A DNA stretch of 64,000 nt. Source: Bacteroidota bacterium (GTDB taxonomy: Bacteria > Bacteroidota > Bacteroidia > NORP154). The DNA lies in contig JBDRNO010000218.1 of NCBI GenBank assembly GCA_043811005.1, positions 6,925 to 70,924 on the forward strand. The letters are read 5' to 3'. The first letter of the stretch is position 1, and every line of letters starts with the position of its first letter. Made by a program: the position numbers and the translations under genes. The notes under the pieces are model-generated. The model worked only from the letters and a program-made list of their open reading frames with translations, was not told where the DNA came from and did no database searches. Below, in pieces: positions 1 through 15,514 of the stretch.

Positions 1-552
1 TAAATCTGCTGTTTTAATGGGTTTTTCAATTGGTGTTAATAAATCCTCTTCTTCTTTCTTTTTCTTTCTTTCATTTGCCTGCTTAATAAACTCAGTATTT
101 TCATCTTCAATAATTTTTTGAAGATCCCTGTCGAACATAATTATTTTCACATAATTATCTTCCAGATGTTTTATTCCTTTACCATAAACAGTATAATCCG
201 GATCAGTAATACCAACATAAACGGTTTTTATTCTTGCTTTTGAAGTCCGTTTGCAACAAGCTATTTTTGGAGGTGTTCTTTCAACACAAGGCTCAAGTGT
301 GGTAAACAAAATACAATCATCAAGTTTTTTGTTCCCAAGTTTTCTTTCAAGTAAGGTAAATTCCGCATGATCGCCATCTCTGAGTTCTCCTCTGTGAGCT
401 CTTTCAATTTTACCGTCCGGAAATAACAAAATTGTTCCAACCTTGGGCGGCACTTTACCATCTGGTCTTGGTTCATTCATGCTCTTATTCATCTCCTCAA
501 TTGCCAATTCCATGTAAGGCCTTGGATTAAATATTTCTTCTTTTTTTGCCAT
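1..552 (-). CDS. CDA-fold (RibD-like) zinc deaminase domain protein; 5' end complete, 3' end runs off the window
   Basis: Absent from the ORF track because there is no stop inside the window. ATG at 552, frame hand-translated and open to nt 1 (184 codons): MAKKEEIFNPRPYMELAIEEMNKS... Zinc-deaminase signature DGDHAEFTLLE ... TTLEPCVERTPPKIACC (H-A-E / P-C-x8-C-C, resembling the RibD TLEPC..TPPC motif). Starts 11 nt after the methyltransferase stop on the same strand. Confidence 0.6.
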   Translation of the reverse strand, partial: MAKKEEIFNPRPYMELAIEEMNKSMNEPRPDGKVPPKVGTILLFPDGKIERAHRGELRDGDHAEFTLLERKLGNKKLDDCILFTTLEPCVERTPPKIACCKRTSKARIKTVYVGITDPDYTVYGKGIKHLEDNYVKIIMFDRDLQKIIEDENTEFIKQANERKKKKEEEDLLTPIEKPIKTADL

Positions 553-3854: not shown

Positions 3855-4679
3855 CTATTTCAGTTTTGTTATTTGCCGATTAGCCATAAGCGATTTCATT
3901 TGGGTAATTGCTATTTGGTTCAATTGCTTCAATCGTTCAGGTTGGGATAAGCCTTGATTTATCAGTACTGCATTGATGCTTTCCATATTAGAAAGCACCA
4001 CCAATTGTTCAATAGTTGCTTCATCCCTGATGTTACCTTGTTTCTCAGGATTGGCATCCCGCCACTGCTTTGCTGTCGAACCGAATAAAGCTACATTTAG
4101 CATATCTGCTTCATTGGAATATACATAGTTTATCTGGTTTTTACTCAACTCTTTTGGAATAAGATTCTCTTTGATGGCATCGGTATGGATATGATAATTT
4201 ATTTTAGCAAGGGTTCGTTGCAAATTCCATTCAAGTTTTAGCCGGTCGTTTTCATCTTCCTTAAGTCGTTGGAATTCTTTGATAAAATAAAATTTAAATT
4301 CAGCACTTATCCATGTGGCAAATTCAAAAGCAATATCACGATGTGCAAAGGTTCCTCCATATCTTCCTGATTTAGATGTAATTCCAATTGCATTGGTGGT
4401 TTCTATCCATTTTTGCGGGGTAAGTGTGAAACTATTGGAGCCAGATTCATTTTTAAAAGCATCGAATTCGATGCTTTTAAAATTTGGATTATTCAATTGC
4501 TCCCATAATCCACAAAACTCTATAGCACTACGGGTACGAATCCAATTTTGAATAATGTAGTTCGTACGATCAGCATCTTTGTATCTTGCCATATCGGTCA
4601 GTGAAATGTAATCTGCTGACTTATCGGCAAACAATGCTATTTCCCGGCCTTTTACAATGATTGTCTTGTTTTTTGCCAT
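3855..4679 (-). CDS. KilA-N domain protein
   Basis: MAKNKTIIVKGREIALF..DYISLTDMARYK...NWIRTRSAIEFCGLWEQLNNPNF...GRYGGTFAHRDIAFEFATWIS matches the Bacteroidota KilA-N family often embedded in R-M loci. Start placed at the MAKNK ATG (4679). The track ORF extends to 4715 but would overlap the helicase 3' end. Confidence 0.75.
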   Translation of the reverse strand: MAKNKTIIVKGREIALFADKSADYISLTDMARYKDADRTNYIIQNWIRTRSAIEFCGLWEQLNNPNFKSIEFDAFKNESGSNSFTLTPQKWIETTNAIGITSKSGRYGGTFAHRDIAFEFATWISAEFKFYFIKEFQRLKEDENDRLKLEWNLQRTLAKINYHIHTDAIKENLIPKELSKNQINYVYSNEADMLNVALFGSTAKQWRDANPEKQGNIRDEATIEQLVVLSNMESINAVLINQGLSQPERLKQLNQIAITQMKSLMANRQITKLK

Positions 4680-4687
4680 GCCATGTA

Positions 4688-7600
4688 CTATTTGTTTATT
4701 AATCCCATTGAACAAATTATTTGAGGTTCTTTGTTGGGCATTTCATCCTGATTTACAATGCAAAGCTTATCTTCTTCACGCAAGGAAACGACAAGGTTAA
4801 CAAGATCTTCGTCAGAAATACCTGCTTTAAGCTGACGGTTCAATGTTTCCCTTGCGAATTCTTTAAATGGGTATTTATAAATATCATCAACGGCTTTCTT
4901 TAATGCATCGTTCACAAATATGGTATTTTCATATTCCTTACAATACCTGTCAAGACGCATGTAAACCCTGTATTTCGCACCGGTCTTTTTACCAAGTGAG
5001 CTACCGGTAATTTTCTCATCGACCCGGATATATTCAATACCTTTCTTTACAAGTTCATGATGTTTTAAGATTCTATACAGTGGTTCTACATCGGAGTTAC
5101 AAGCCGCTGCTTTTAGAATTGTAAGCTGTGATTGTGTAATAATATTTCCCTTGGTATTTACCCATGCAAGTACATCATTTTCATCATAAGTTCGGGTATA
5201 AACGATCACACCTTCTTTTTCAGCCGCCAGATTATTTTGTTTTGTAGCATAAATGACATTGGGTAAATTGGGTATTGTTTTTATAAATTCAGGTGTTTCA
5301 TCGGTTGCATTTTTCCATATTTGGAAAGCAAAAGAAGCTAAATCAACTTCGCTATCCCCATCTTCTTCGTCCAAAATACCAGATTTTTCGTTATAGAGAT
5401 CTTCAATATTAATTGGGTCGCCATCAAAAAAAACTTCATCGGATCCAACAACTTCAGCATTTTGACGTATGCGATTTGTAAGCCTGTGGCGCAGATTAAT
5501 TATTTGCTCAATTCCATCTTCCGGCAAAAACGAATAGCATATTATTTGTTCTGCCTTTTGTCCAATACGATCAACACGTCCTGCTCGTTGTATAAGCCTT
5601 ATTATTGCCCAAGGCAAATCATAATTCAAAATTATATGGGCATCCTGCAAATTCTGCCCTTCACTCAGAACATCTGTGGAAACTAAAACCCTGATGTCAT
5701 TTTTTGTTTCAGGTATTTTGTTGCTTACCGGACTAAAACGGTACGCCAATGCAGTTGGGTTTTCGCTATTTCCGGTAACGTGTTCAAGTTGTTCAAGTTT
5801 TCGGATTTTTAAATGCTCTGATAAATAATAAGCAGTATCGGCATACTGAGTAAATATCAGCACTTTTTCGTTTTTGTGTTTGTTAGATAACAGTTTGTGC
5901 AAAGCATTCAGTTTTCTATCTTCATTCACATTCCAATCGTTGCCTACTTTTAATATTTTTATTATATCAGAACAATCAGTTGACAATTGTTTGAGCAAAA
6001 CCGGAGCGAAAAATTCACTTCTTATCCAATCAAATTGATGTTTATACTTGCTGCTACTATACAATTCATAAACCTTTGATGCTTTTTTCAAATAAACATT
6101 TTCATTAAGTATAAAATTGATGGTATTTTCATCTTCACCATTATTATCAGTATCATTATCCTCCAGAAAATCATCAAGGTTTTGAGAAATGTTTTTGCCA
6201 ATAGGAACAGGTAAATTGTTTTGAATAGCATAGAAAAAAACATAGTTCCGCAAAATATGCCTGCTTATTGAAATAAGAAAAGAAAAGCCACTGCTTTCAA
6301 GTCTTTTAAAAAGATTTGTCCTGCAAAATCCCATTAATCGTTTTCCTGCACGTGATAAATTTGCTATGATTACTTCTTCCTCTTTAGTTGGTTTAATGGA
6401 AGGCTTTTGTAGTATATAATTTGCTAAACCGTAACGAGGCAAATCAAGTCCATTAATAATATCTACAACACTTTTGGAATATAGTTTTGCGTATTGGTCT
6501 TTTGGATTATCGGGGTTAAAGTCAAATTCAACTTTTTTAGGAATTCTATCAGGGAAATAAGACCGTGTTCCGTCTGAAAAAGTCAAATACTTTCTGTTTT
6601 TATCAGGGTCTAATTCTGCATAGTTTTCTTTAATAAAACTTCTTGTTCTGCGAACAAGATAAAGCCGCATTAATTCACGCCAATCATCTGCATAATGACT
6701 TTTTTCAAAAGCTTTAATACTGCGAATAAAAGTTTCTGTATGTTGTGCACCAAACTGTACTTGTCCGCCTATATTGTTTATATAATTTTCCGGACTAATT
6801 CCCAAATCTTTATCATCCGAAATAAAAAGACGAAGTTGATTTGATAAGTCCAAATAGGATTTGTTATAGGGAGTTGCAGAAAGTAAAATAACCTTACTGT
6901 CATTTTCTTCAAGATATGCTTTTATTGAACGATAACGACTACCCTGATCGTTTCGTAAGTTGTGGCTTTCATCTATTATTACAAGTTTATATCTGCGTAA
7001 ATCCGGCAGTTTTCTTTGTACTTCGCCTATTGAAATTACATTTGCCTTTAAATCATATCTGTTGATGTAGCCTGACCACATCGTTTTTAGATTTGGCGGG
7101 CAAATTACAAGCGTTGAATAGAAAAAATCCTCTTCAAATATTTTTGCTAAAGCACATGCTGTAATTGTCTTTCCTAACCCGACAACATCACCAATAAAAA
7201 CACCTTCGCGGCTGTTTAATTTTTTTGCTGCGATTAAAACGGCTGCTTGTTGAAAAGGCAGAAGTTCTTTTTTAAAGACTTTTGGAATTTTAAATTCATT
7301 CAATCCGGCTCTTGCTTCTTGTGAAAGATGATAAGCCATTTTCAGGTAAATATGATAAGGTGAAACCAAACGGTCTGCCGCCCAGCTATTATCAATGATA
7401 TCAATTAGTTCTTCAGTAATATCAATACACCAGCGATCTTTCCAACGATCATCAAACCATTTAGCTAATTTTGTTGCAGCATCCTGATCCATTACGTCAA
7501 CATTCAATTCTCCTTGTTTTGCAGGGCCGGCCAATGTCAGGTTACTGCTCCCCAAAAAACCAACTACCGGCACACGTTTATCTTCGCTGTAAGCTAAATA

Positions 7601-8207: not shown

Positions 8208-8468
8208 TTACACAGATTTACCCATATCATATAATACATCCGGGCAAAAATCCAATCCGTTATTCCAATATATTGTTTCCCATTCGGGCTGTAACTTTAC
8301 ACTGTTAAAATAATCAGGATCCAATAGCGCTTTATATTTGCTGTTTTTTGTTTTACTTCTGGACTTTATTTTTTCTTCCAGATCAAGGATCTTTATCTCA
8401 CCCGTATTAAACCTTAAAGTAAGTTTATAAGGTTCTTTATTGATAATTTCTTTTATGAGATATAACAT
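8208..8468 (-). CDS. DUF2442-family small protein
   Basis: 86 aa; YKLTLRFNTGEIKILDLE ... IYWNNGLDFCPDVLY pattern typical of DUF2442. 7 nt downstream of the DUF4160 gene. Confidence 0.6.
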   Translation of the reverse strand: MLYLIKEIINKEPYKLTLRFNTGEIKILDLEEKIKSRSKTKNSKYKALLDPDYFNSVKLQPEWETIYWNNGLDFCPDVLYDMGKSV

Positions 8469-8475
8469 TTATGAT

Positions 8476-8739
8476 TTATTTTATTGGTTCAATTTTATTA
8501 ATTTCAGGATTATCTTTTTGGCTTTCTTCCCAATTTTCTATTAATTCATCTCTATGTAATTCAGTCCATGCCTGGATCAATCTCAACTGTTTTTTCGGAA
8601 AACTTCCTTCCATCAAGTCACCGGATTCTATTTCAAACCGTGCATTATACTCTCCATACCTTGCGTGAAAATGTGGTGGTGGATGATCATCTGCATACAT
8701 GGTTATAATTATTCCGAAAAATCTGCTTATCTCTGGCAT
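8476..8739 (-). CDS. DUF4160-family small protein
   Basis: 87 aa; MPEISRFFGIIITMYADDHPPPHFHARYGEYNA is the characteristic DUF4160 N-terminus. Confidence 0.65.
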   Translation of the reverse strand: MPEISRFFGIIITMYADDHPPPHFHARYGEYNARFEIESGDLMEGSFPKKQLRLIQAWTELHRDELIENWEESQKDNPEINKIEPIK

Positions 8740-8784: not shown

Positions 8785-9651
8785 TTACAATTCCGTTAAT
8801 TTCCCATAAGTCTCAGGTCTTCTGTCCCTGAAAAACTGCCATGTTGAGCGGACTTCATCTATCATATCGAGATCAAATTCCGCCACCAGCAACTCATCCT
8901 TATCTTCAGAAGCTTCAGCAATGATCTTACCTTTTGGGTCTACAAAATATGAAGTTCCATAGAACTTACCCAAATTCCACGGTTTCTCCTCCCCTACCCT
9001 GTTGATACATCCCAAAAAGTAACCGTTGGCAACGGCATGGGCGGGTTGCTCTAACTTCCATAAATATTGGGATAATCCTGCAACCGTAGCAGACGGATTA
9101 TATACTATTTCCGCCCCGTTCAGCCCGAGCACTCGCGCTCCATCGGGGAAGTGCCTGTCATAGCAAATATAAACACCGACTTTTGCATACTTGGTATCAA
9201 ACACAGGATAGCCCAGGTTCCCGGGTTTAAAAAAGAACTTTTCCCAGAACCCCGTTGTGTGAGGTATATGGTTTTTCCTGTACTTACCCAAATATTCGCC
9301 TCCGGCATCTATCACGGCAGCGGTATTGTACAAAAAACCGGGTTTTTCCTTTTCATAAACAGGTACAACGATGACCATATCATATTTTCTTGCATATTCC
9401 TGCAATTTTTCCGTTGTTGGGCCGGGAACAGACTCGGCAGATTCATACCACTTCTTATCCTGTCCGGGACAAAAATATGGCGTATTAAAAATTTCCTGCA
9501 GGCAAAGGATCTGAACACCCTGTTTACCTGCATCTTCAATATAAGGAATATGTTTTTGGTACATCGCATCCATTATCTCCTGGATTGTACCCTCTCCCTC
9601 GGTCATAGGGAGTGACATTTGAATCAAACCTGATTTGATTTTTCTTGGCAT
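8785..9651 (-). CDS. Beta-ureidopropionase-like carbon-nitrogen hydrolase (nitrilase superfamily)
   Basis: 288 aa. Glu-Lys-Cys triad contexts LCLQEIF, YRKNHIP, VGVYICYDRHFPD. Segment PYFC..WYESAESVPGPTTEKLQEYARKYDMVIVVPVYEKE resembles beta-alanine synthases. Adjacent to dihydropyrimidinase. Confidence 0.75.
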   Translation of the reverse strand: MPRKIKSGLIQMSLPMTEGEGTIQEIMDAMYQKHIPYIEDAGKQGVQILCLQEIFNTPYFCPGQDKKWYESAESVPGPTTEKLQEYARKYDMVIVVPVYEKEKPGFLYNTAAVIDAGGEYLGKYRKNHIPHTTGFWEKFFFKPGNLGYPVFDTKYAKVGVYICYDRHFPDGARVLGLNGAEIVYNPSATVAGLSQYLWKLEQPAHAVANGYFLGCINRVGEEKPWNLGKFYGTSYFVDPKGKIIAEASEDKDELLVAEFDLDMIDEVRSTWQFFRDRRPETYGKLTEL

Positions 9652-9756
9652 GGTTATTAGTTTAGAGTTTAATTTGTTAAAAAGGTTTTGAAGCTATTGT
9701 TTTTTACCACTCACTAAGAACACTTAGTTTCGCTAAGTTTTTATTTAAGTTATTCA

Positions 9757-11139
9757 TTATATGATCAGGGAAGTTTTTCCTCTTTTAATAAATTGCCCAC
9801 ATCCTTTGCCGATCTTAACTTCTCCATCATCTATAGCAACCTTTCCCCTTAACAAAACTGTCTTGCATTTGCCTGTCACTTCCCACCCTTCATAGCCAGA
9901 GTAATCACAGTTCATGTGGTGTGTATCAACAGAAAGGGTGTGCTTTTCTTCAGGATCAAATATAATTAAATCAGCATCAGAGCCAATAGCTATACTTCCT
10001 TTTTTGGGGGATAAACCAAATATTTTAGCTGCGTTTGTTGATGTAACCTCCACAAATTTGTTCAAACTGATCCTGCCCTTTTCAACTCCTTCCGAATATA
10101 TAAGTTCCATCCTGTGTTCAATACCCGGCATACCATTAGGTATCTTTGAAAAGTCATCCTTACCCATTTTCTTCTGCTCAAAAGTAAATGGTGCATGGTC
10201 GGTACCTATAACCTGTACAAGCCCCTGGTTCAATCCAGCCCATAATGTTTCCCGGTCTTTCTTTTCCCGCAGTGGGGGGCTCATCACCCATTTGGCACCA
10301 TCAAAATCTTTCTCATAAAGGGAAGCATCGAGTAGGAGATACTGAGGGCAAGTTTCCACAAATACCTTTTGATTCCTCAATGTTGCATTGCGCACTGCAT
10401 TCAGCGCACCTTCGCAGGTAAGGTGAACGATATATGCAGATACTCCGGTGTGGTTAGCCATGTCAATAAAGCGCCTGGATGCTTCGGCTTCGGTTATCTC
10501 GGGCTGGGACAGGTAATGGTATAACGGAGACAGTTTCCCTTCGGCTCTATGTTTTGCAACAAGATTATCTATTATATCCCCGTTAGTTGCATGAACCTGA
10601 ACAAGACCACCGAGCTCCTTCATCTGCTTCATCAGGGCTACCATCTGCCCGTCATCTATCATTAAAGCGCCCTTATATGCCATAAAGGTTTTAAAGGATG
10701 TTATTCCTTCCTTCTCAATAATATCTACCAACTCCATGCTTATCTTTTCGTTATAATCAGTAATGGCAATGTGGAATGAATAATCACCAAAGGTGTTTCC
10801 TTCTGACCTCCCACGCCATTCTTCAAGGGCTGAGGAAAGCGACTTTCCCTGCGTTTGTATTACATAGTCAATTACAGTCGTTGTTCCACCATGCAGGGCA
10901 GCACGGGTGCCGGTCTCATAGTTATCGCTTGTGAATGTTCCCATGAAAGGCATGTCAAGGTGAACGTGAGGGTCAATACCGCCCGGAAATACTAATTTGT
11001 CTGAGGCATCAATGGTTTGGTCTGCTTCAATATTCAAACCCTTTCCAATAGTAGAAATTGTTTCTCCTTCAATGAAGATATCGGCAATATAATCATCAGA
11101 TGCTGTGATGATCCTGCCGTTTTTGATCAGTATACTCAT
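9757..11139 (-). CDS. Dihydropyrimidinase / D-hydantoinase (cyclic amidohydrolase)
   Basis: 460 aa. Metal-binding GGIDPHVHLDMPF, carboxylated-Lys context SFKTFMAYKG, VHATNGD, GTDHAP motifs. Confidence 0.85.
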   Translation of the reverse strand: MSILIKNGRIITASDDYIADIFIEGETISTIGKGLNIEADQTIDASDKLVFPGGIDPHVHLDMPFMGTFTSDNYETGTRAALHGGTTTVIDYVIQTQGKSLSSALEEWRGRSEGNTFGDYSFHIAITDYNEKISMELVDIIEKEGITSFKTFMAYKGALMIDDGQMVALMKQMKELGGLVQVHATNGDIIDNLVAKHRAEGKLSPLYHYLSQPEITEAEASRRFIDMANHTGVSAYIVHLTCEGALNAVRNATLRNQKVFVETCPQYLLLDASLYEKDFDGAKWVMSPPLREKKDRETLWAGLNQGLVQVIGTDHAPFTFEQKKMGKDDFSKIPNGMPGIEHRMELIYSEGVEKGRISLNKFVEVTSTNAAKIFGLSPKKGSIAIGSDADLIIFDPEEKHTLSVDTHHMNCDYSGYEGWEVTGKCKTVLLRGKVAIDDGEVKIGKGCGQFIKRGKTSLII

Positions 11140-11227: not shown

Positions 11228-13234
11228 ATGAATAAAGTAAGTTATTTATATCCACACAAGCTGGAGCAATTAAGAAAGTTCTCCTCCCGGCTTAACAGAA
11301 TGATGAATAATGGTTCTTTTTACCGTTTGTCATCACACAGACGTTATGTGCTCATTCAAAGGATCAAAAGGTTATATCGTCAATTGCAGAACTATATTCC
11401 TGAATTTAGATTAAAACACATACTTGGATCTGCAGCTCTTTTGCTTATAATGAATACAAAAATATCCAGCGCTCAAACATTTGGGCCTCCTCAAATAAAC
11501 CCTTTTGGATTAACCAACACCAATAATTCATTCCCAACTTTTGTTGATATTGATAGCGATGGCGACTATGATGCTTTTGTAGGTGAGTACTATGGCTTGA
11601 TAAAATACTTTAAGAATAATGGTAACAATACTAATCCATCATTTGCCGCACCTCAAACCAATCCATTTGGATTAGCTAGTGCTTTTTATCTTGCTGCTCC
11701 ATCTTTTGCTGATATTGACGATGATGGAGACCTTGATGCTTTTATTGGAGAAGGATATGGTGCAATAAGATATTTTGAGAATACAGGTAATAATACTGCC
11801 CCGGCTTTCGCTTCACCTCAAGTCAATCCTTTCGGATTGACAAATACCGACTACTATGCTTTCCCAACACATACAGACATTGACAGTGATGGAGACTACG
11901 ATATTTTTGTCGGGGAATACTACGGTGCTATTAAATATTTTGAAAACACGGGTTCCAGTACCTCACCAGCATTTGCATCACAACAGACAAATCCTTTTGG
12001 ATTAACAAATGTCGCAGGATATATTTCAACGCCATCTTTCGTTGATATTGACTGTGACGGTGACTTTGATGCTTTCATAGGCGGAGAGGATTATGGCAGC
12101 ATTACTTATTTTGAAAATACCGGATCAAACACTGCTCCTTCATTTGCTCCAGCTACATCCAATCCCTTTGGTATAAAAAGCACTGGTGGTTTTGCTGCCC
12201 CAAGTTTCGCAGATATTGACGGTGACGGGGATTTTGACCTTTTTATTGGGAATTACAACGGTTCCATTATTTATTATGAGAACACAACAACACCTGATTG
12301 TCCCTCACCTATCAGTCTGTCAGCAGACAATATCTCCTTAAACACAGCAGATCTATCATGGGCATCTACTAATCCCGGCACTGCCTATACACTTGAATAT
12401 GGACCTTCAGGATTTACACCCGGATCAGGAATCACGTTAGCTGGAACATCTGCTACCGGTGTTAATTCACAAAGCATATCCGGCTTGAATGCCACAACTC
12501 TATATGAATTCTACATTCAGGAAGACTGCGGTTCAGGCAATTACAGTGATAATGTTGGTCCGCTTTTATTCGCAACATCACCTGCAAATGACAATTGTAT
12601 TGGTGCAATACCTGTTAATTGCGGAGATATATTCTATGGATCAACCGTTAGTGCCACTACCGATACTCCAGATAGCTGTGGCACAACCAATGGTACAGGT
12701 GGCGGGGTATGGTTTTCTTTTACGGGAACAGGCGATACTATTAATGCTTCCCTATGCAATAGCAATTACGATACGAAAATAAGGGTGTATACCGGTACAT
12801 GCGGTTCATTAGTATGTATAACAGGCATTGACGATACCTGCGGGCTTCAATCAGAAGTTGAATGGCTCTCCCTTATGGATACTACATATTACATTCTCGT
12901 ACATGGATATGGCGATGAAGAAGGATTCTTTACCTTAAATATGTGTAATGCCATTAGTTCTATTAATGAAAGTATCCCGGAATTAAATTTTAATATTTAT
13001 CCCAACCCTGTTAGTCAAAACTTTAATATTGAAATAAGAGGAAAAAGGAATTTGAATAGTTCAACGTTAGAAATATATAATACCATCGGTCAGATAATGC
13101 TTAGGGAAAAACTCAGGGGTTGGTCTAACAAATATCATAAGGAAATTAGCACGGATGGTTTTACCAAGGGGATTTACTTCGTAAGATTAATATCAGAAGA
13201 TTATATTGTTGTCCGCAAGTTGATAATTCAGTAA
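11228..13234 (+). CDS. Secreted FG-GAP/VCBS-repeat protein with T9SS type A C-terminal sorting domain
   Basis: 668 aa. Six ~57-aa repeats NPFGL..P.F.DID.DGD.D.F.GE.YG.I.YFEN.G; FN3-like segment; C-terminal IYPNPVSQNFNIEI...GIYFVRL...KLIIQ sorting domain. Signal-like hydrophobic stretch only at aa ~65-82, so the true start is uncertain. Confidence 0.8.
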   Translation: MNKVSYLYPHKLEQLRKFSSRLNRMMNNGSFYRLSSHRRYVLIQRIKRLYRQLQNYIPEFRLKHILGSAALLLIMNTKISSAQTFGPPQINPFGLTNTNNSFPTFVDIDSDGDYDAFVGEYYGLIKYFKNNGNNTNPSFAAPQTNPFGLASAFYLAAPSFADIDDDGDLDAFIGEGYGAIRYFENTGNNTAPAFASPQVNPFGLTNTDYYAFPTHTDIDSDGDYDIFVGEYYGAIKYFENTGSSTSPAFASQQTNPFGLTNVAGYISTPSFVDIDCDGDFDAFIGGEDYGSITYFENTGSNTAPSFAPATSNPFGIKSTGGFAAPSFADIDGDGDFDLFIGNYNGSIIYYENTTTPDCPSPISLSADNISLNTADLSWASTNPGTAYTLEYGPSGFTPGSGITLAGTSATGVNSQSISGLNATTLYEFYIQEDCGSGNYSDNVGPLLFATSPANDNCIGAIPVNCGDIFYGSTVSATTDTPDSCGTTNGTGGGVWFSFTGTGDTINASLCNSNYDTKIRVYTGTCGSLVCITGIDDTCGLQSEVEWLSLMDTTYYILVHGYGDEEGFFTLNMCNAISSINESIPELNFNIYPNPVSQNFNIEIRGKRNLNSSTLEIYNTIGQIMLREKLRGWSNKYHKEISTDGFTKGIYFVRLISEDYIVVRKLIIQ

Positions 13235-13305
13235 CAAATAGAAGGATTTTAAAACAGCGGGTAAGTATTATGTAATATTATGTCAACTCTATCAACTTAT
13301 TGATT

Positions 13306-14133
13306 TTATATAAACTCTCTTAATACCTTTAAATTAACCTCATCCATATTTTTTTCCTTAGGAGTTTCCAATACCTTGGGGATATCAGGGAATTGTTTCA
13401 TGATTTGCTTGAAAGGTTCAATGCCTATTTTGCCTTTGCCAATATGTTCGTGCCTGTCCACCCTGCTGCCCAAATCAGCTTTTGAGTCATTTAAGTGAAT
13501 CACTTTAAGATTTTGCAATCCTATGATCTTATCCCATTTCTCCATAGTATCCTCAAATCCTCCTTTAGTCCTGATATCATAACCCGCGGCAAAAGCGTGG
13601 CAGGTATCAAAACAGGCGCCAATCCTTTCAGAGCTTACCATGTCCATGATCTCCCTTAAATGTTCAAATGTTCTGCCAATACTTGATCCCTGTCCAGCCA
13701 TATTTTCCAACAATATCATAACATTGGAATAATTCGTTTCATCAATAATTTCCTTCAGCGCTTCAGCAATGTTTTTAATACCTTCATGCTCACTCAACTC
13801 TTTTGGAAAGCCCGGATGTAATATGGTGAACTTTAATCCCAGGTCGTGGCATCTCTGCACCTCCCCTACCATCGCCCTGATGGCATTAACTTTTTTAACC
13901 TTATCGGGATTGGCTAAGTTTACCAGGTAAGAAGCATGAGAAAAGGCAATTTTGATATTTGCTTTATTAAAGCCGGTCTTGAATTTGTCCTGCTCTTCTT
14001 TCGTGAACTGCTTTTCTTTCCACTGCCGTTGGTTCTTGGTGAATATTTGAAAAGCATCAATTCCCAATGATGCAGCTTCCTCACAGGCATTATGAACGCC
14101 TCCGCTTATTGAACAATGAACACCAAGTAGCAT
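13306..14133 (-). CDS. nfo: Endonuclease IV (deoxyribonuclease IV)
   Basis: 275 aa; HASYLVNLA, HPG, LENMAGQGSSIG, CFDTCHAFAAGYD, HLNDSK..GSRVDRHEHIGKG motifs. Confidence 0.9.
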   Translation of the reverse strand: MLLGVHCSISGGVHNACEEAASLGIDAFQIFTKNQRQWKEKQFTKEEQDKFKTGFNKANIKIAFSHASYLVNLANPDKVKKVNAIRAMVGEVQRCHDLGLKFTILHPGFPKELSEHEGIKNIAEALKEIIDETNYSNVMILLENMAGQGSSIGRTFEHLREIMDMVSSERIGACFDTCHAFAAGYDIRTKGGFEDTMEKWDKIIGLQNLKVIHLNDSKADLGSRVDRHEHIGKGKIGIEPFKQIMKQFPDIPKVLETPKEKNMDEVNLKVLREFI

Positions 14134-14161
14134 TTAATTTATACCTTTTTTATTAATAATT

Positions 14162-15514
14162 TTATACACAATACCCATCAGCTATATCAATTGCCCGTGA
14201 GATAATTTCAAGACCTTCATCAATCTGCTCTTTAGTTATGCAGAGTGGTGGTGCAATGAATATCCAGTTCCACCGCACGAATGTAAACATGCCTGATTCA
14301 CGGATAAGGGCAGCCATTTTGTTAGTTACTTCCATTTCATTGGGTTTGGCATTCCAGGGTGTTATGGGTTCTTTTGTTTCGCGATTTTTTACCAGTTCAA
14401 TACAGCCAAATAAGCCGGTGTTTCGAAAATCACCAATAGAGGGGTGTTTTGTCTTCATTACCTCTACACGTTTCTCAAGATATTTTCCCATGTTTGCAGC
14501 ATTTTCTATAAGGTTTTCTTCCTCATAAACTTCAATTGTTGCCAAAGCAGCAGCACATGACACAGCATGGGCGGAATATGTCAGTCCTAAAGGCAGGGAT
14601 TTGTCATTAAAATAATTGGCAATTTCTTCTTTTACTATCATTGCACCTAATGGAATATAACCTGAGGTCAAACCCTTTGCCATGCACATAATATCCGGCT
14701 CCACTCCATGATGGTCAATACCAAACCATTTGCCTGTTCTGCCAAATCCGCTCATTACTTCGTCATCAATGATCAGGATACCGTATTTATCGGCAATGGC
14801 TTTTATCATTTTCCAGTAGCCGGGAGGGTATTTTATACAGCCGGACGAGCCGGATTCACCTTCCAGCAGTATGGCAGCAACACTGTCGGGGTTCTCAAAC
14901 CGTATCACCCGCTCAACATGTTCCGCTGCTTTCCGTGCGCACTCTTCAAGGGTTTTACTGCCCCATGGACAGCGGTAGAAATAGGGATTTTCAATATGAA
15001 CAATATTAGGCATCTGTTGGCTGTCAACAGGGTGTTTCCTGGGATCGCCACCTGCAGATATCGCTCCGTAAGTTGCTCCGTGATATGAACGGTATTGAGC
15101 AATGATCTTATGCCTTCCAGTGAATAATCGTGCCAGCTTGATCGCATTTTCGATGGCTTCAGCTCCTCCAAGTGTATAAAATGTCTTTTTTAATCCACCA
15201 GGGGTGATCTCTGCAAGTTTTTTTCCTAATTCACCTCTTACTTTTGTGATCATTCCCGGATAAACATAGCTCACTTCTTCCATTTGCTTCATAACAGCTT
15301 GCCGCACTTTAGGATGTCCATGACCTATGTTCACATTCATCAACTGTGATGAAAAATCGAGATAACGCTTGCCGTCCCTGTCATAAACATAAACGCCCCC
15401 GGCTCTTTCTATATTTATGGGATCCAACCCACTCTGCTTGGACCAGGAGAAAAGTGTGTAATTAAGGTTATTTTGCAGTATCTGGTCTTTTTCTGAGATC
15501 GTTTTTATTTGCAT
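14162..15514 (-). CDS. Class-III (omega) aminotransferase, likely beta-alanine/omega-amino acid:pyruvate transaminase
   Basis: 450 aa; YTLGGAEAIENAIKLAR, IIDDEVMSGFGRTGKWF, CMAKGLTSGY (PLP lysine context). Genomic context with pyrimidine-catabolic genes. Confidence 0.8.
   Translation of the reverse strand: MQIKTISEKDQILQNNLNYTLFSWSKQSGLDPINIERAGGVYVYDRDGKRYLDFSSQLMNVNIGHGHPKVRQAVMKQMEEVSYVYPGMITKVRGELGKKLAEITPGGLKKTFYTLGGAEAIENAIKLARLFTGRHKIIAQYRSYHGATYGAISAGGDPRKHPVDSQQMPNIVHIENPYFYRCPWGSKTLEECARKAAEHVERVIRFENPDSVAAILLEGESGSSGCIKYPPGYWKMIKAIADKYGILIIDDEVMSGFGRTGKWFGIDHHGVEPDIMCMAKGLTSGYIPLGAMIVKEEIANYFNDKSLPLGLTYSAHAVSCAAALATIEVYEEENLIENAANMGKYLEKRVEVMKTKHPSIGDFRNTGLFGCIELVKNRETKEPITPWNAKPNEMEVTNKMAALIRESGMFTFVRWNWIFIAPPLCITKEQIDEGLEIISRAIDIADGYCV

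Follow-up and report, generated by a model that had tools for sequence, protein, structure and literature searches.

What does a zinc deaminase do immediately behind a DNA methyltransferase and a helicase? The question arises at the edge of a 64,000-nucleotide stretch of a Bacteroidota genome, the window of this study (bases 6925-70924 of contig JBDRNO010000218.1, hereafter C218), where the initial annotation described an open reading frame (ORF) running off the sequence, with the signature of a RibD-type deaminase, and took it for the last gene of a restriction-like operon. The ORF proved to be real, with 184 minus-strand codons from the ATG at 552 inside the window, and the adjoining contig DNA supplied the remainder of a 496-codon gene in which the deaminase is fused to a GHKL ATPase and to a C-terminal segment that we read as a winged helix-turn-helix (wHTH). 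Our preferred answer, to which we assign a probability of roughly 55%, is that this fusion protein is cargo of restriction loci and that its wHTH reads sites of its own type on phage DNA, switching on the deaminase.

A deaminase head on a GHKL ATPase scaffold

The zinc-deaminase signature noted earlier, DHAEFTLLE followed by TLEPCVERTPPKIACC, is present at the N-terminus, ahead of a Lys/Glu-rich linker. This head matches Pfam dCMP_cyt_deam_1 (PF00383; residues 13-114, 37-40 bits against a cut-off of 25) and the AID/APOBEC-like family Inv-AAD (PF18785; residues 68-142, 45-48 bits against a cut-off of 26.5). Across 54 homologs that are 43-94% identical, the zinc-binding and catalytic residues H62, A63, E64, P88, C89 and C99 are invariant, as is D117, and the basic residues R54, R58, R92 and K96, together with D119, are invariant or nearly so. 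The RibD assignment was borne out by both sequence and fold. In Foldseek searches with the head, RibD/RibG ranked first, ahead of fungal Rib2, dCMP deaminase, TadA and APOBEC; the head superposes on RibD/RibG deaminase domains at 2.2-2.8 Å over ~154 columns, and APOBEC chains fall well below RibD, Rib2, dCMP deaminase and TadA (E ~1e-3 vs 1e-9). A PDB profile search returned RibD at 1e-9 and 3LMM at 1.6e-8. These matches, with the catalytic residues intact, support the assignment of the head as a predicted CDA-fold deaminase of the RibD type.

Resemblance to RibD ends with the head. The RibD/RibG structures (PDB 2B3Z, 4G3M, 2HXV and 3ZPC) are the best match for residues 1-150, sharing the HAE motif and the long PC-x8/9-C loop, but the fusion has neither a reductase domain nor a rib operon and scores far below the family cut-off: TIGR00326, the model of bifunctional RibD, matches the deaminase part only, at 43.3 bits against a curated cut-off of 156 bits. 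A reductase domain was sought in residues 185-496 and none was found, this region consisting of the GHKL ATPase and the wHTH. A genuine ribD, scoring 279 bits and thus above the cut-off, resides elsewhere in the genome, on contig C230. The missing reductase, the low score and the separate ribD rule out a housekeeping RibD, the outcome that the initial annotation had named as fatal to its proposal.

As for what the head might bind, a proline stands in the deaminase at the position aligned with what we take to be N23 of B. subtilis RibG. In that enzyme, D101 and N103 hold the ribose hydroxyls and K79 of the zinc loop holds the phosphate (PMC8256712). Because D117 and D119 match RibG D101 and N103, the pocket looks to be of the pyrimidine-nucleotide type, apparently shaped for a ribose- or phosphate-bearing pyrimidine, and a RibD-like pocket of this kind would favor a nucleotide-type ligand.

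The C-terminal domains, left unassigned by the initial annotation, could be identified by profile and structure searches as a GHKL ATPase and a probable winged helix. Residues 326-405 match Pfam HATPase_c_4 (PF13749) at 49.8 bits against a cut-off of 26, and the GHKL motifs E311, N315, H319-R320, S342-P-G344, E380-E381, G383 and G385 are invariant or nearly so, with E311, N315, G344, G383 and G385 strictly invariant among the same 54 homologs. An AlphaFold2 model built from these homologs (mean pLDDT 88) comprises the deaminase (1-150), a disordered K/E-rich linker and an alpha/beta body that ends in the wHTH (~435-496). The modeled C-terminus has helices at 435-447, 452-459 and 463-475 and short strands at 479-481 and 493-495, an arrangement of three helices and two strands that we read as a winged helix; the HTH model PF08220 is present in one homolog. 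Foldseek places the body on DIP2311 (PDB 3LMM) with E = 5e-12.

DIP2311 leads to a known group. Proteins that combine SLFN_AlbA_2, HATPase_c_4 and HTH domains (COG2865) have lately been named "Schlatpase"; ATP binding, ATP hydrolysis and tetramerization have been traced to the GHKL domain of one such protein, most have a C-terminal HTH, and the module shuttles among pAgo, NACHT and Type I restriction systems (bioRxiv 10.64898/2026.05.29.728809). The fusion protein resembles these Schlatpase-HTH proteins (DIP2311, 3LMM; the SLFN-pAgo RzAgo module) in its GHKL module, C-terminal HTH and total length, in a body that superposes on 3LMM with the ATP-binding residues conserved, and in its restriction-locus habitat, which extends even to the same slot among helicase, methyltransferase and DprA-like genes. 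Unlike them, it carries a RibD-like zinc deaminase where they carry a Schlafen/AlbA_2 nuclease head, and, in the slots examined, tripartite repeats at the stop codon accompany only the deaminase versions. SLFN_AlbA_2 (PF04326) finds no match in the protein, residues 1-150 being the deaminase instead. Judged by its domain matches, the protein has the scaffold of the COG2865 Schlatpase-HTH group, with a deaminase in the position of the Schlafen/AlbA_2 head. Deaminase fusions go unmentioned in the Schlatpase preprint (bioRxiv 10.64898/2026.05.29.728809), and our literature search for fusions of a deaminase with HATPase_c_4 found no published description.

Tripartite repeats, protein tails and phage genomes

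The stop codon of the fusion gene is accompanied by conserved palindromic repeats. Each unit consists of three 9-nt half-sites separated by 3-nt spacers, namely, an arm, a direct copy of the arm and an inverted copy, with the consensus AACnTnGACA nnA AnnTnGACA Tnn TGTCnAnGTT, in which GACA/GACA/TGTC is invariant and five outer positions vary. Written out, the type A unit of the window locus is ACATAGACA aga ACATAGACA tgc TGTCTATGT. Palindromes were found between -25 and +300 of the stop codon in 68 of 77 loci, at a density after the stop codon of 9.9/kb, vs 0.29/kb in the rest of the loci and 0.97/kb in other intergenic DNA. The first unit begins between -12 and +11 of the stop codon, the next lies ~62 nt further on, and the final unit often abuts the start codon of a DprA-like gene. 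The polarity of the units is fixed, the middle copy being direct relative to the gene-proximal arm in 71 of 73 units. The arms vary among loci yet remain complementary; the 169 double-changed cells, vs ~58 in shuffles, are inflated because arm pairing served to select the units, but the middle arm, which lay outside this selection, is complementary to the distal arm in 83.5% of cells, vs 27-41% in slid controls.

The units were sorted by arm into types A (CATAGACA), B (CTTGGACA), C (TCGCGACA), D (TCCCGACA), E (TCTCGCCA, with N14) and G (TCTGGACA). The third unit of the window locus is of type B, although the tail of the window protein is of type A, and mixed arm types also occur in L004, L010, L013, L199 and L245 as well as in phage contigs. 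A second fusion gene in the same genome, on contig C304, has repeats of the same layout with other arms and a 12-nt spacer. L078 is an exception in that three ATCCCGACA-N15 units, repeating every 61 nt, precede the deaminase gene (2028-2183).

The whole host assembly (4.6 Mb in 310 contigs, 37.8% G+C, 83% complete) has no units of this format besides the three of the window locus, against a chance expectation of 0.02, and a search of 400 other genomes of the phylum (1.4 Gb; the weight of this zero is taken up below) gave no type A unit. Dispersed REP-like repeats are ruled out by this distribution, all three genome copies being here and none in the 400 other genomes. Integron attC-like sites, suggested by an element on the stop codon of a cassette-like gene, were dropped as a candidate, given that the AAC/GTT core is missing from most arm types, that units occur in tandem and that the neighbors are not cassette arrays. 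A mini-CRISPR (33-nt palindromic unit, ~30 nt between units) was likewise dropped: there are only 2-4 units, the middle of the unit degenerates, the arms are conserved, and no cas genes lie near the repeats. Plain intrinsic terminators were rejected as well, the window copies being without T-runs and T-runs occurring at only about 1/3 of the phage copies described below. Where loci were collected around helicase relatives, a slot has such units only if the deaminase fusion occupies it.

The sequence of the protein tail tracks that of the units. We ranked alignment columns by their association with the arm type of the locus. Residues 426-496, with 63 of the 383 variable columns, hold 22 of the top 30 arm-associated columns (Fisher p = 4e-13), the strongest lying in helix 463-475 (R464, T465, S467; recognition-helix columns 462-467), in the wing at 481-488 and in helix 452-459; columns 493-496 are trivially tied to arm type, the last codons overlapping the first arm. 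Individual pairs illustrate the pattern. The L059 protein, with a body only 45% identical to that of the window protein, has a near-identical tail (TRTTSRHL...NGENPKSPKLRY) and type A arms, and the L009 protein, with a body 77% identical, differs in its tail and goes with type B arms. Whichever bin of body identity is taken, tail identity is 0.56-0.74 for pairs of the same arm type and 0.34-0.43 for pairs of different types. Arm sequence thus co-varies with the predicted wHTH, in its recognition helix and in its wing.

The same units are present in phages. Among IMG/VR contigs, the type A unit was found in 89 stretches and the type B unit in at least 120, vs 1 and 0 for composition-matched control palindromes, an over-representation of the motif of ~100-fold. 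The phage copies have the identical three-part layout, mostly with one unit per locus and sometimes with arm types side by side. Of 98 distinct phage units, 55 lie no more than 60 nt past a co-directional ORF whose last residues are [DE][LM]PF and which encodes the phage single-strand DNA-binding protein (SSB; phrog_1192 / phrog_224), and the gene that follows the unit is most often a UvsX-like recombinase (phrog_97). Stretches L084-L163 and L259-L338 (IMG/VR) represent an uncultured phage group with the motif between gp32-like SSB and UvsX-like genes; other phage copies stand beside tRNA genes or follow a small ORF with ENGN or ENGD as its last residues (phrog_1811). The phages carry the sites and not the protein: no relative of the fusion is encoded in 80 type A phage loci, a scan of the whole viral collection for the fusion gave one distant match only, to the body alone, and the flanks fetched around the phage sites encode nothing similar to the wHTH tail at E <= 1.

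A candidate sensor of phage DNA and the alternatives

In the mechanism that we favor, the N-terminal RibD-like zinc deaminase is the probable effector, the GHKL ATPase is probably an ATP-driven oligomerization switch, and the wHTH would be the site reader, taking the tripartite units as DNA. Matching motifs on incoming phage DNA, typically those in the ssb-uvsX intergenic region, would recruit the protein, ATP-dependent assembly would turn the deaminase on, and the deaminase would then attack either a nucleotide-type substrate or the nucleic acid around the site, presumably to the benefit of phage defense. The self copies of the unit at the 3' end of the gene might hold the protein or allow it to regulate itself. 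We advance only tentatively, with the odds against it, the more pointed proposal that a cellular deaminase-ATPase, through a swappable module of wHTH and cognate three-part site, senses the phage ssb-uvsX motif and responds by deamination.

If this mechanism is correct, it would represent sequence-specific innate sensing of phage DNA that employs neither methylation marks nor guide RNAs, that is, direct reading of a phage-specific DNA motif by a bacterial immune protein, with specificity types (CATAGACA, CTTGGACA, TCTCGCCA and others) traded among hosts as phages alter their sites. The protein would also be a naturally programmable deaminase, with site reader, ATP switch and deaminase in one chain. 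Of the unexplained passengers that restriction loci carry, COG2865 Schlatpase-HTH proteins rank among the most common, and the deaminase variant offers a way in: a deaminase effector is easy to assay, the tail has an apparent code in the form of residues that co-vary with the 9-bp half-sites, and the conserved motif between phage ssb and uvsX-like genes is a candidate natural target. Should the model fail, the conserved stop-codon repeats and their phage counterparts would still want explaining.

Several considerations count against sensing of phage sites. The tail codons adjoin the repeats, and co-inheritance of the two as one recombination unit could yield their association without any binding. 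The placement of the self copies at the 3' end lacks a functional explanation. The absence of the type A unit from 1.4 Gb of cellular DNA makes no significant contrast with the phages, because the density in phage contigs is itself ~1 copy per Gb. Many of the phage contigs are related, such that their counts are not independent, and the T-run that follows about 1/3 of the phage units suggests that these could be no more than terminators. In structure, the head is closest to enzymes that use free mononucleotide-type substrates, a preference that is awkward for a site-tethered DNA editor. Finally, the argument for a defense role is one of enrichment only, because about half of the family loci adjoin ordinary housekeeping genes.

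Among the alternatives, the one that survives best, although we consider it unlikely, treats the repeats as RNA. Under this type III toxin-antitoxin-like scheme, hairpins in the 3' untranslated region would silence a deaminase toxin, the shut-off of transcription by a phage would free the toxin, and the phage copies would be decoy antitoxins. The precedent is AvcID, in which the AvcI RNA silences the deaminase AvcD (PMC10511110) and nucleic-acid repeats lie beside the gene (PMC10511110; bioRxiv 10.1101/2021.04.26.441389); AvcD and the dCTP deaminases of phage defense share with the fusion a CDA-fold deaminase joined to an NTPase module and a defense context. Repeats that adjoin a deaminase-NTPase gene, keep a fixed polarity and can form two alternative hairpins are all compatible with this scheme, as are phage copies located in transcribed intergenic DNA with the polarity of the upstream gene. 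However, G.U pairs are rare in the arms, and the strict sequence identity across all three half-sites, with GACA invariant, leans to DNA half-sites; the co-varying residues are those of a wHTH recognition helix and wing, typically readers of the B-DNA major groove; and the repeats of known type III antitoxins lie upstream of the toxin gene, not downstream. The fusion further differs from AvcID and the dCTP deaminases in belonging to a RibD-like clade rather than to the dCMP/dCTP type, in having a GHKL domain rather than a P-loop NTPase, and in combining a predicted sequence-reading wHTH with downstream repeats that resemble DNA half-sites.

A little less probable again is a role in transcription, as a site-specific regulator of restriction and defense operons, in which the wHTH, bound to the repeats, would control read-through to downstream genes such as the DprA-like gene or HsdR, with the deaminase sensing or processing a small-molecule signal rather than serving as an immune effector. 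Such a role would fit the last repeat ending 7-54 nt before the DprA-like start codon in the window locus, L191, L199 and L245, the frequent placement of the fusion between HsdS and HsdR in Type I loci, and the annotation of most COG2865 proteins as HTH regulators. The repeats are, however, present whatever lies downstream, including opposite-strand and housekeeping genes; the catalytic residues and ATPase motifs are all invariant; and regulation of a neighboring gene would leave the phage copies unexplained.

An optional occupant of a restriction-cassette slot

The fusion belongs to a large family. More than 2,600 database proteins match the fusion, the best 120 being at least 59% identical over the full length with the same two Pfam domains, and relatives are encoded in 350 stretches drawn from 185,579 GTDB species genomes, representing many bacterial phyla and a few archaeal metagenome-assembled genomes (MAGs). 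Neighborhoods were counted in 80 deaminase-centered loci, with genes delineated by a simple longest-ORF caller, which makes the neighbor counts approximate. The fusion trails a same-strand gene at a short gap in 61 of 74 cases (median 45 nt), and at least 30 of the 80 loci have a restriction gene within 3 genes (Type I HsdM/S/R, Eco57I/MmeI-like methyltransferase or GmrSD), a count that is a lower bound because the gene calls are simple. Other deaminase-centered loci have housekeeping neighbors, for example, DNA polymerase I or LptF/G. Of the restriction-like context originally proposed, the general defense and restriction setting stood and the specific partnership with methyltransferase and helicase did not, the pair being found in ~8 of the 80 loci. 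From these neighborhoods, the best explanation appears to be that the deaminase fusion is mobile accessory cargo of restriction and defense loci.

The reverse comparison started from the helicase. Of 70 loci around its relatives, we counted the 29 with at least 5.2 kb of downstream sequence: the methyltransferase is present in 26, the DprA-like gene in 21, the full-length deaminase fusion in only 4, and a match to the body alone in 3. From these counts it follows that the conserved system consists of the PLD-SNF2 helicase, the methyltransferase and the DprA-like gene, and the deaminase fusion is an optional occupant of the slot between the latter two. In several helicase-centered loci, this slot is empty, with the DprA-like gene just 21-23 nt after the methyltransferase; in others, it holds a 205-aa uncharacterized protein, an NYN nuclease, GmrSD with an AAA ATPase, ParA with an SLFN-GHKL protein, or an SLFN-GHKL protein alone (the three body-only matches). 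True SLFN+GHKL proteins fill the slot in L221 and L215. In L191, the slot also contains, directly upstream of the fusion, a 623-aa QueC-like + DpnII/MboI-type endonuclease protein (12455-14323). Neither is the fusion the last gene of its cluster, as the initial annotation had it, because the DprA-like gene follows 182 nt later on the same strand.

These results bear on the original proposal that the deaminase is a dedicated effector, or a modified-base processor, of the methyltransferase/PLD-SNF2 system, which we now regard as improbable. It had in its favor the gap of only 11 nt between the methyltransferase stop codon and the start of the fusion on the same strand, to which can be added the order helicase, methyltransferase, fusion and DprA-like gene seen across phyla (L018, L023, L028, L070, L081, L191, L199, L218 and L245; partial in L013, L020, L035 and L047). 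Co-occurrence, whose absence had been named as a refutation, is limited to 4 of 29 helicase-centered loci; many loci have nothing between methyltransferase and DprA-like gene, and unrelated cargo fills the slot in others; conversely, the closest relatives of the fusion, in L004-L008 (85-90% identical), lack the helicase/methyltransferase pair.

The cassette itself recalls DISARM and BREX (PglX, DrmD, DrmC), its methyltransferase and PLD-SNF2 helicase partly matching the PglX, DrmMI and DrmD models. All these matches fall far under the curated cut-offs, however, and the conserved set of the cassette comprises just three genes, with PLD and SNF2 fused. In PADLOC, the methyltransferase matches REase_MTase_IIG PDLC03628 over its full length, the helicase matches C3a139 "HKD+Snf2" and, partially, DrmD, and the DprA-like protein matches PsyrA (E = 9e-13); the last also matches Pfam DNA_processg_A at 28.7 bits, slightly below the cut-off. 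The KilA-N gene of the window is found in none of the 80 deaminase-centered loci and in only some helicase-centered loci. The features of the locus are collected in Table 1.

Table 1. Features of the fusion gene, its repeats and the surrounding island (window positions unless marked C218)
Feature	Position	Strand	Remarks
Deaminase-GHKL-wHTH gene, first 184 codons	1..552	-	ATG at 552, frame open at base 1
Deaminase-GHKL-wHTH gene, entire, 496 codons	C218 7476..5986 (= L003 7476..5986)		Extends 938 nt left of window
Codons H62-A63-E64	361..369	-	Zinc ligand and catalytic glutamate; invariant in 54 homologs
Codons P88-C89...C99-C100	253..291	-	RibD-type PC-x9-C zinc loop with invariant R92 and K96; aligned to RibG zinc loop
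Codons D117-P118-D119	196..204	-	Profile-aligned with ribose-binding D101-P-N103 of B. subtilis RibG
Repeat unit 1	C218 5959-5991		ACATAGACA-N15-TGTCTATGT; overlaps TAG stop
Repeat unit 2	C218 5896-5928		Copy of unit 1, 63 nt further on
Repeat unit 3	C218 5821-5853		AACTTGGACA-N15-TGTCCAAGTT; ends 17 nt before DprA-like ATG
DprA-like gene, 154 aa	C218 5803..5339		Same strand as fusion, 182 nt downstream
Eco57I/MmeI/PglX-like N6-adenine DNA methyltransferase, 1095 aa	564..3851	-	Core cassette gene; Pfam Eco57I, MmeI_Mtase, MmeI_hel
KilA-N protein	3855..4715	-	PADLOC candidate PDC-S22 (E = 2e-136); optional, between helicase and methyltransferase
PLD(HKD)-SNF2 helicase, 1119 aa	4688..8047	-	Core cassette gene; Pfam PLDc_2, SNF2-rel_dom, Helicase_C
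DUF4160 and DUF2442 small genes	8208..8739	-	Upstream edge of inserted island
CN-hydrolase and dihydropyrimidinase-like amidohydrolase genes	8785..11139	-	Upstream half of reductive pyrimidine-catabolism operon
PreT-like and PreA-like genes	C218 5278..2544		Other half of the same operon

The closest relatives of the window genes are found in Bacteroidales and Prolixibacteraceae MAGs. An island of ~10 kb, from the DUF4160 gene through the DprA-like gene, splits the operon for reductive pyrimidine catabolism; the DUF4160/DUF2442 pair at its edge may be a toxin-antitoxin-like or addiction pair. In L010, the pyrimidine operon is intact, with a 72%-identical deaminase fusion immediately upstream; chance, an insertion hot spot or a functional link might each account for the association of island and operon. 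That the fusion is a metabolic enzyme, either a housekeeping RibD or a pyrimidine deaminase feeding this operon, is essentially excluded, in spite of the ribose-binding Asp motif kept by its RibD-like head and the position of both the island and the L010 homolog, by the RibD comparison given above, by the presence of the pyrimidine operon near only 2 of 81 loci and by a GHKL domain, wHTH and repeats that have no metabolic rationale.

The second fusion paralog of this genome (C304 12567-14048; L187 8568-10040) lies between a DinG/XPD-type helicase and a 1104-aa protein without a Pfam match, with a Fic gene nearby. At least six more HATPase_c_4 genes of the COG2865 type are present in the same genome, on contigs C196, C59, C184, C301, C28 and C55.

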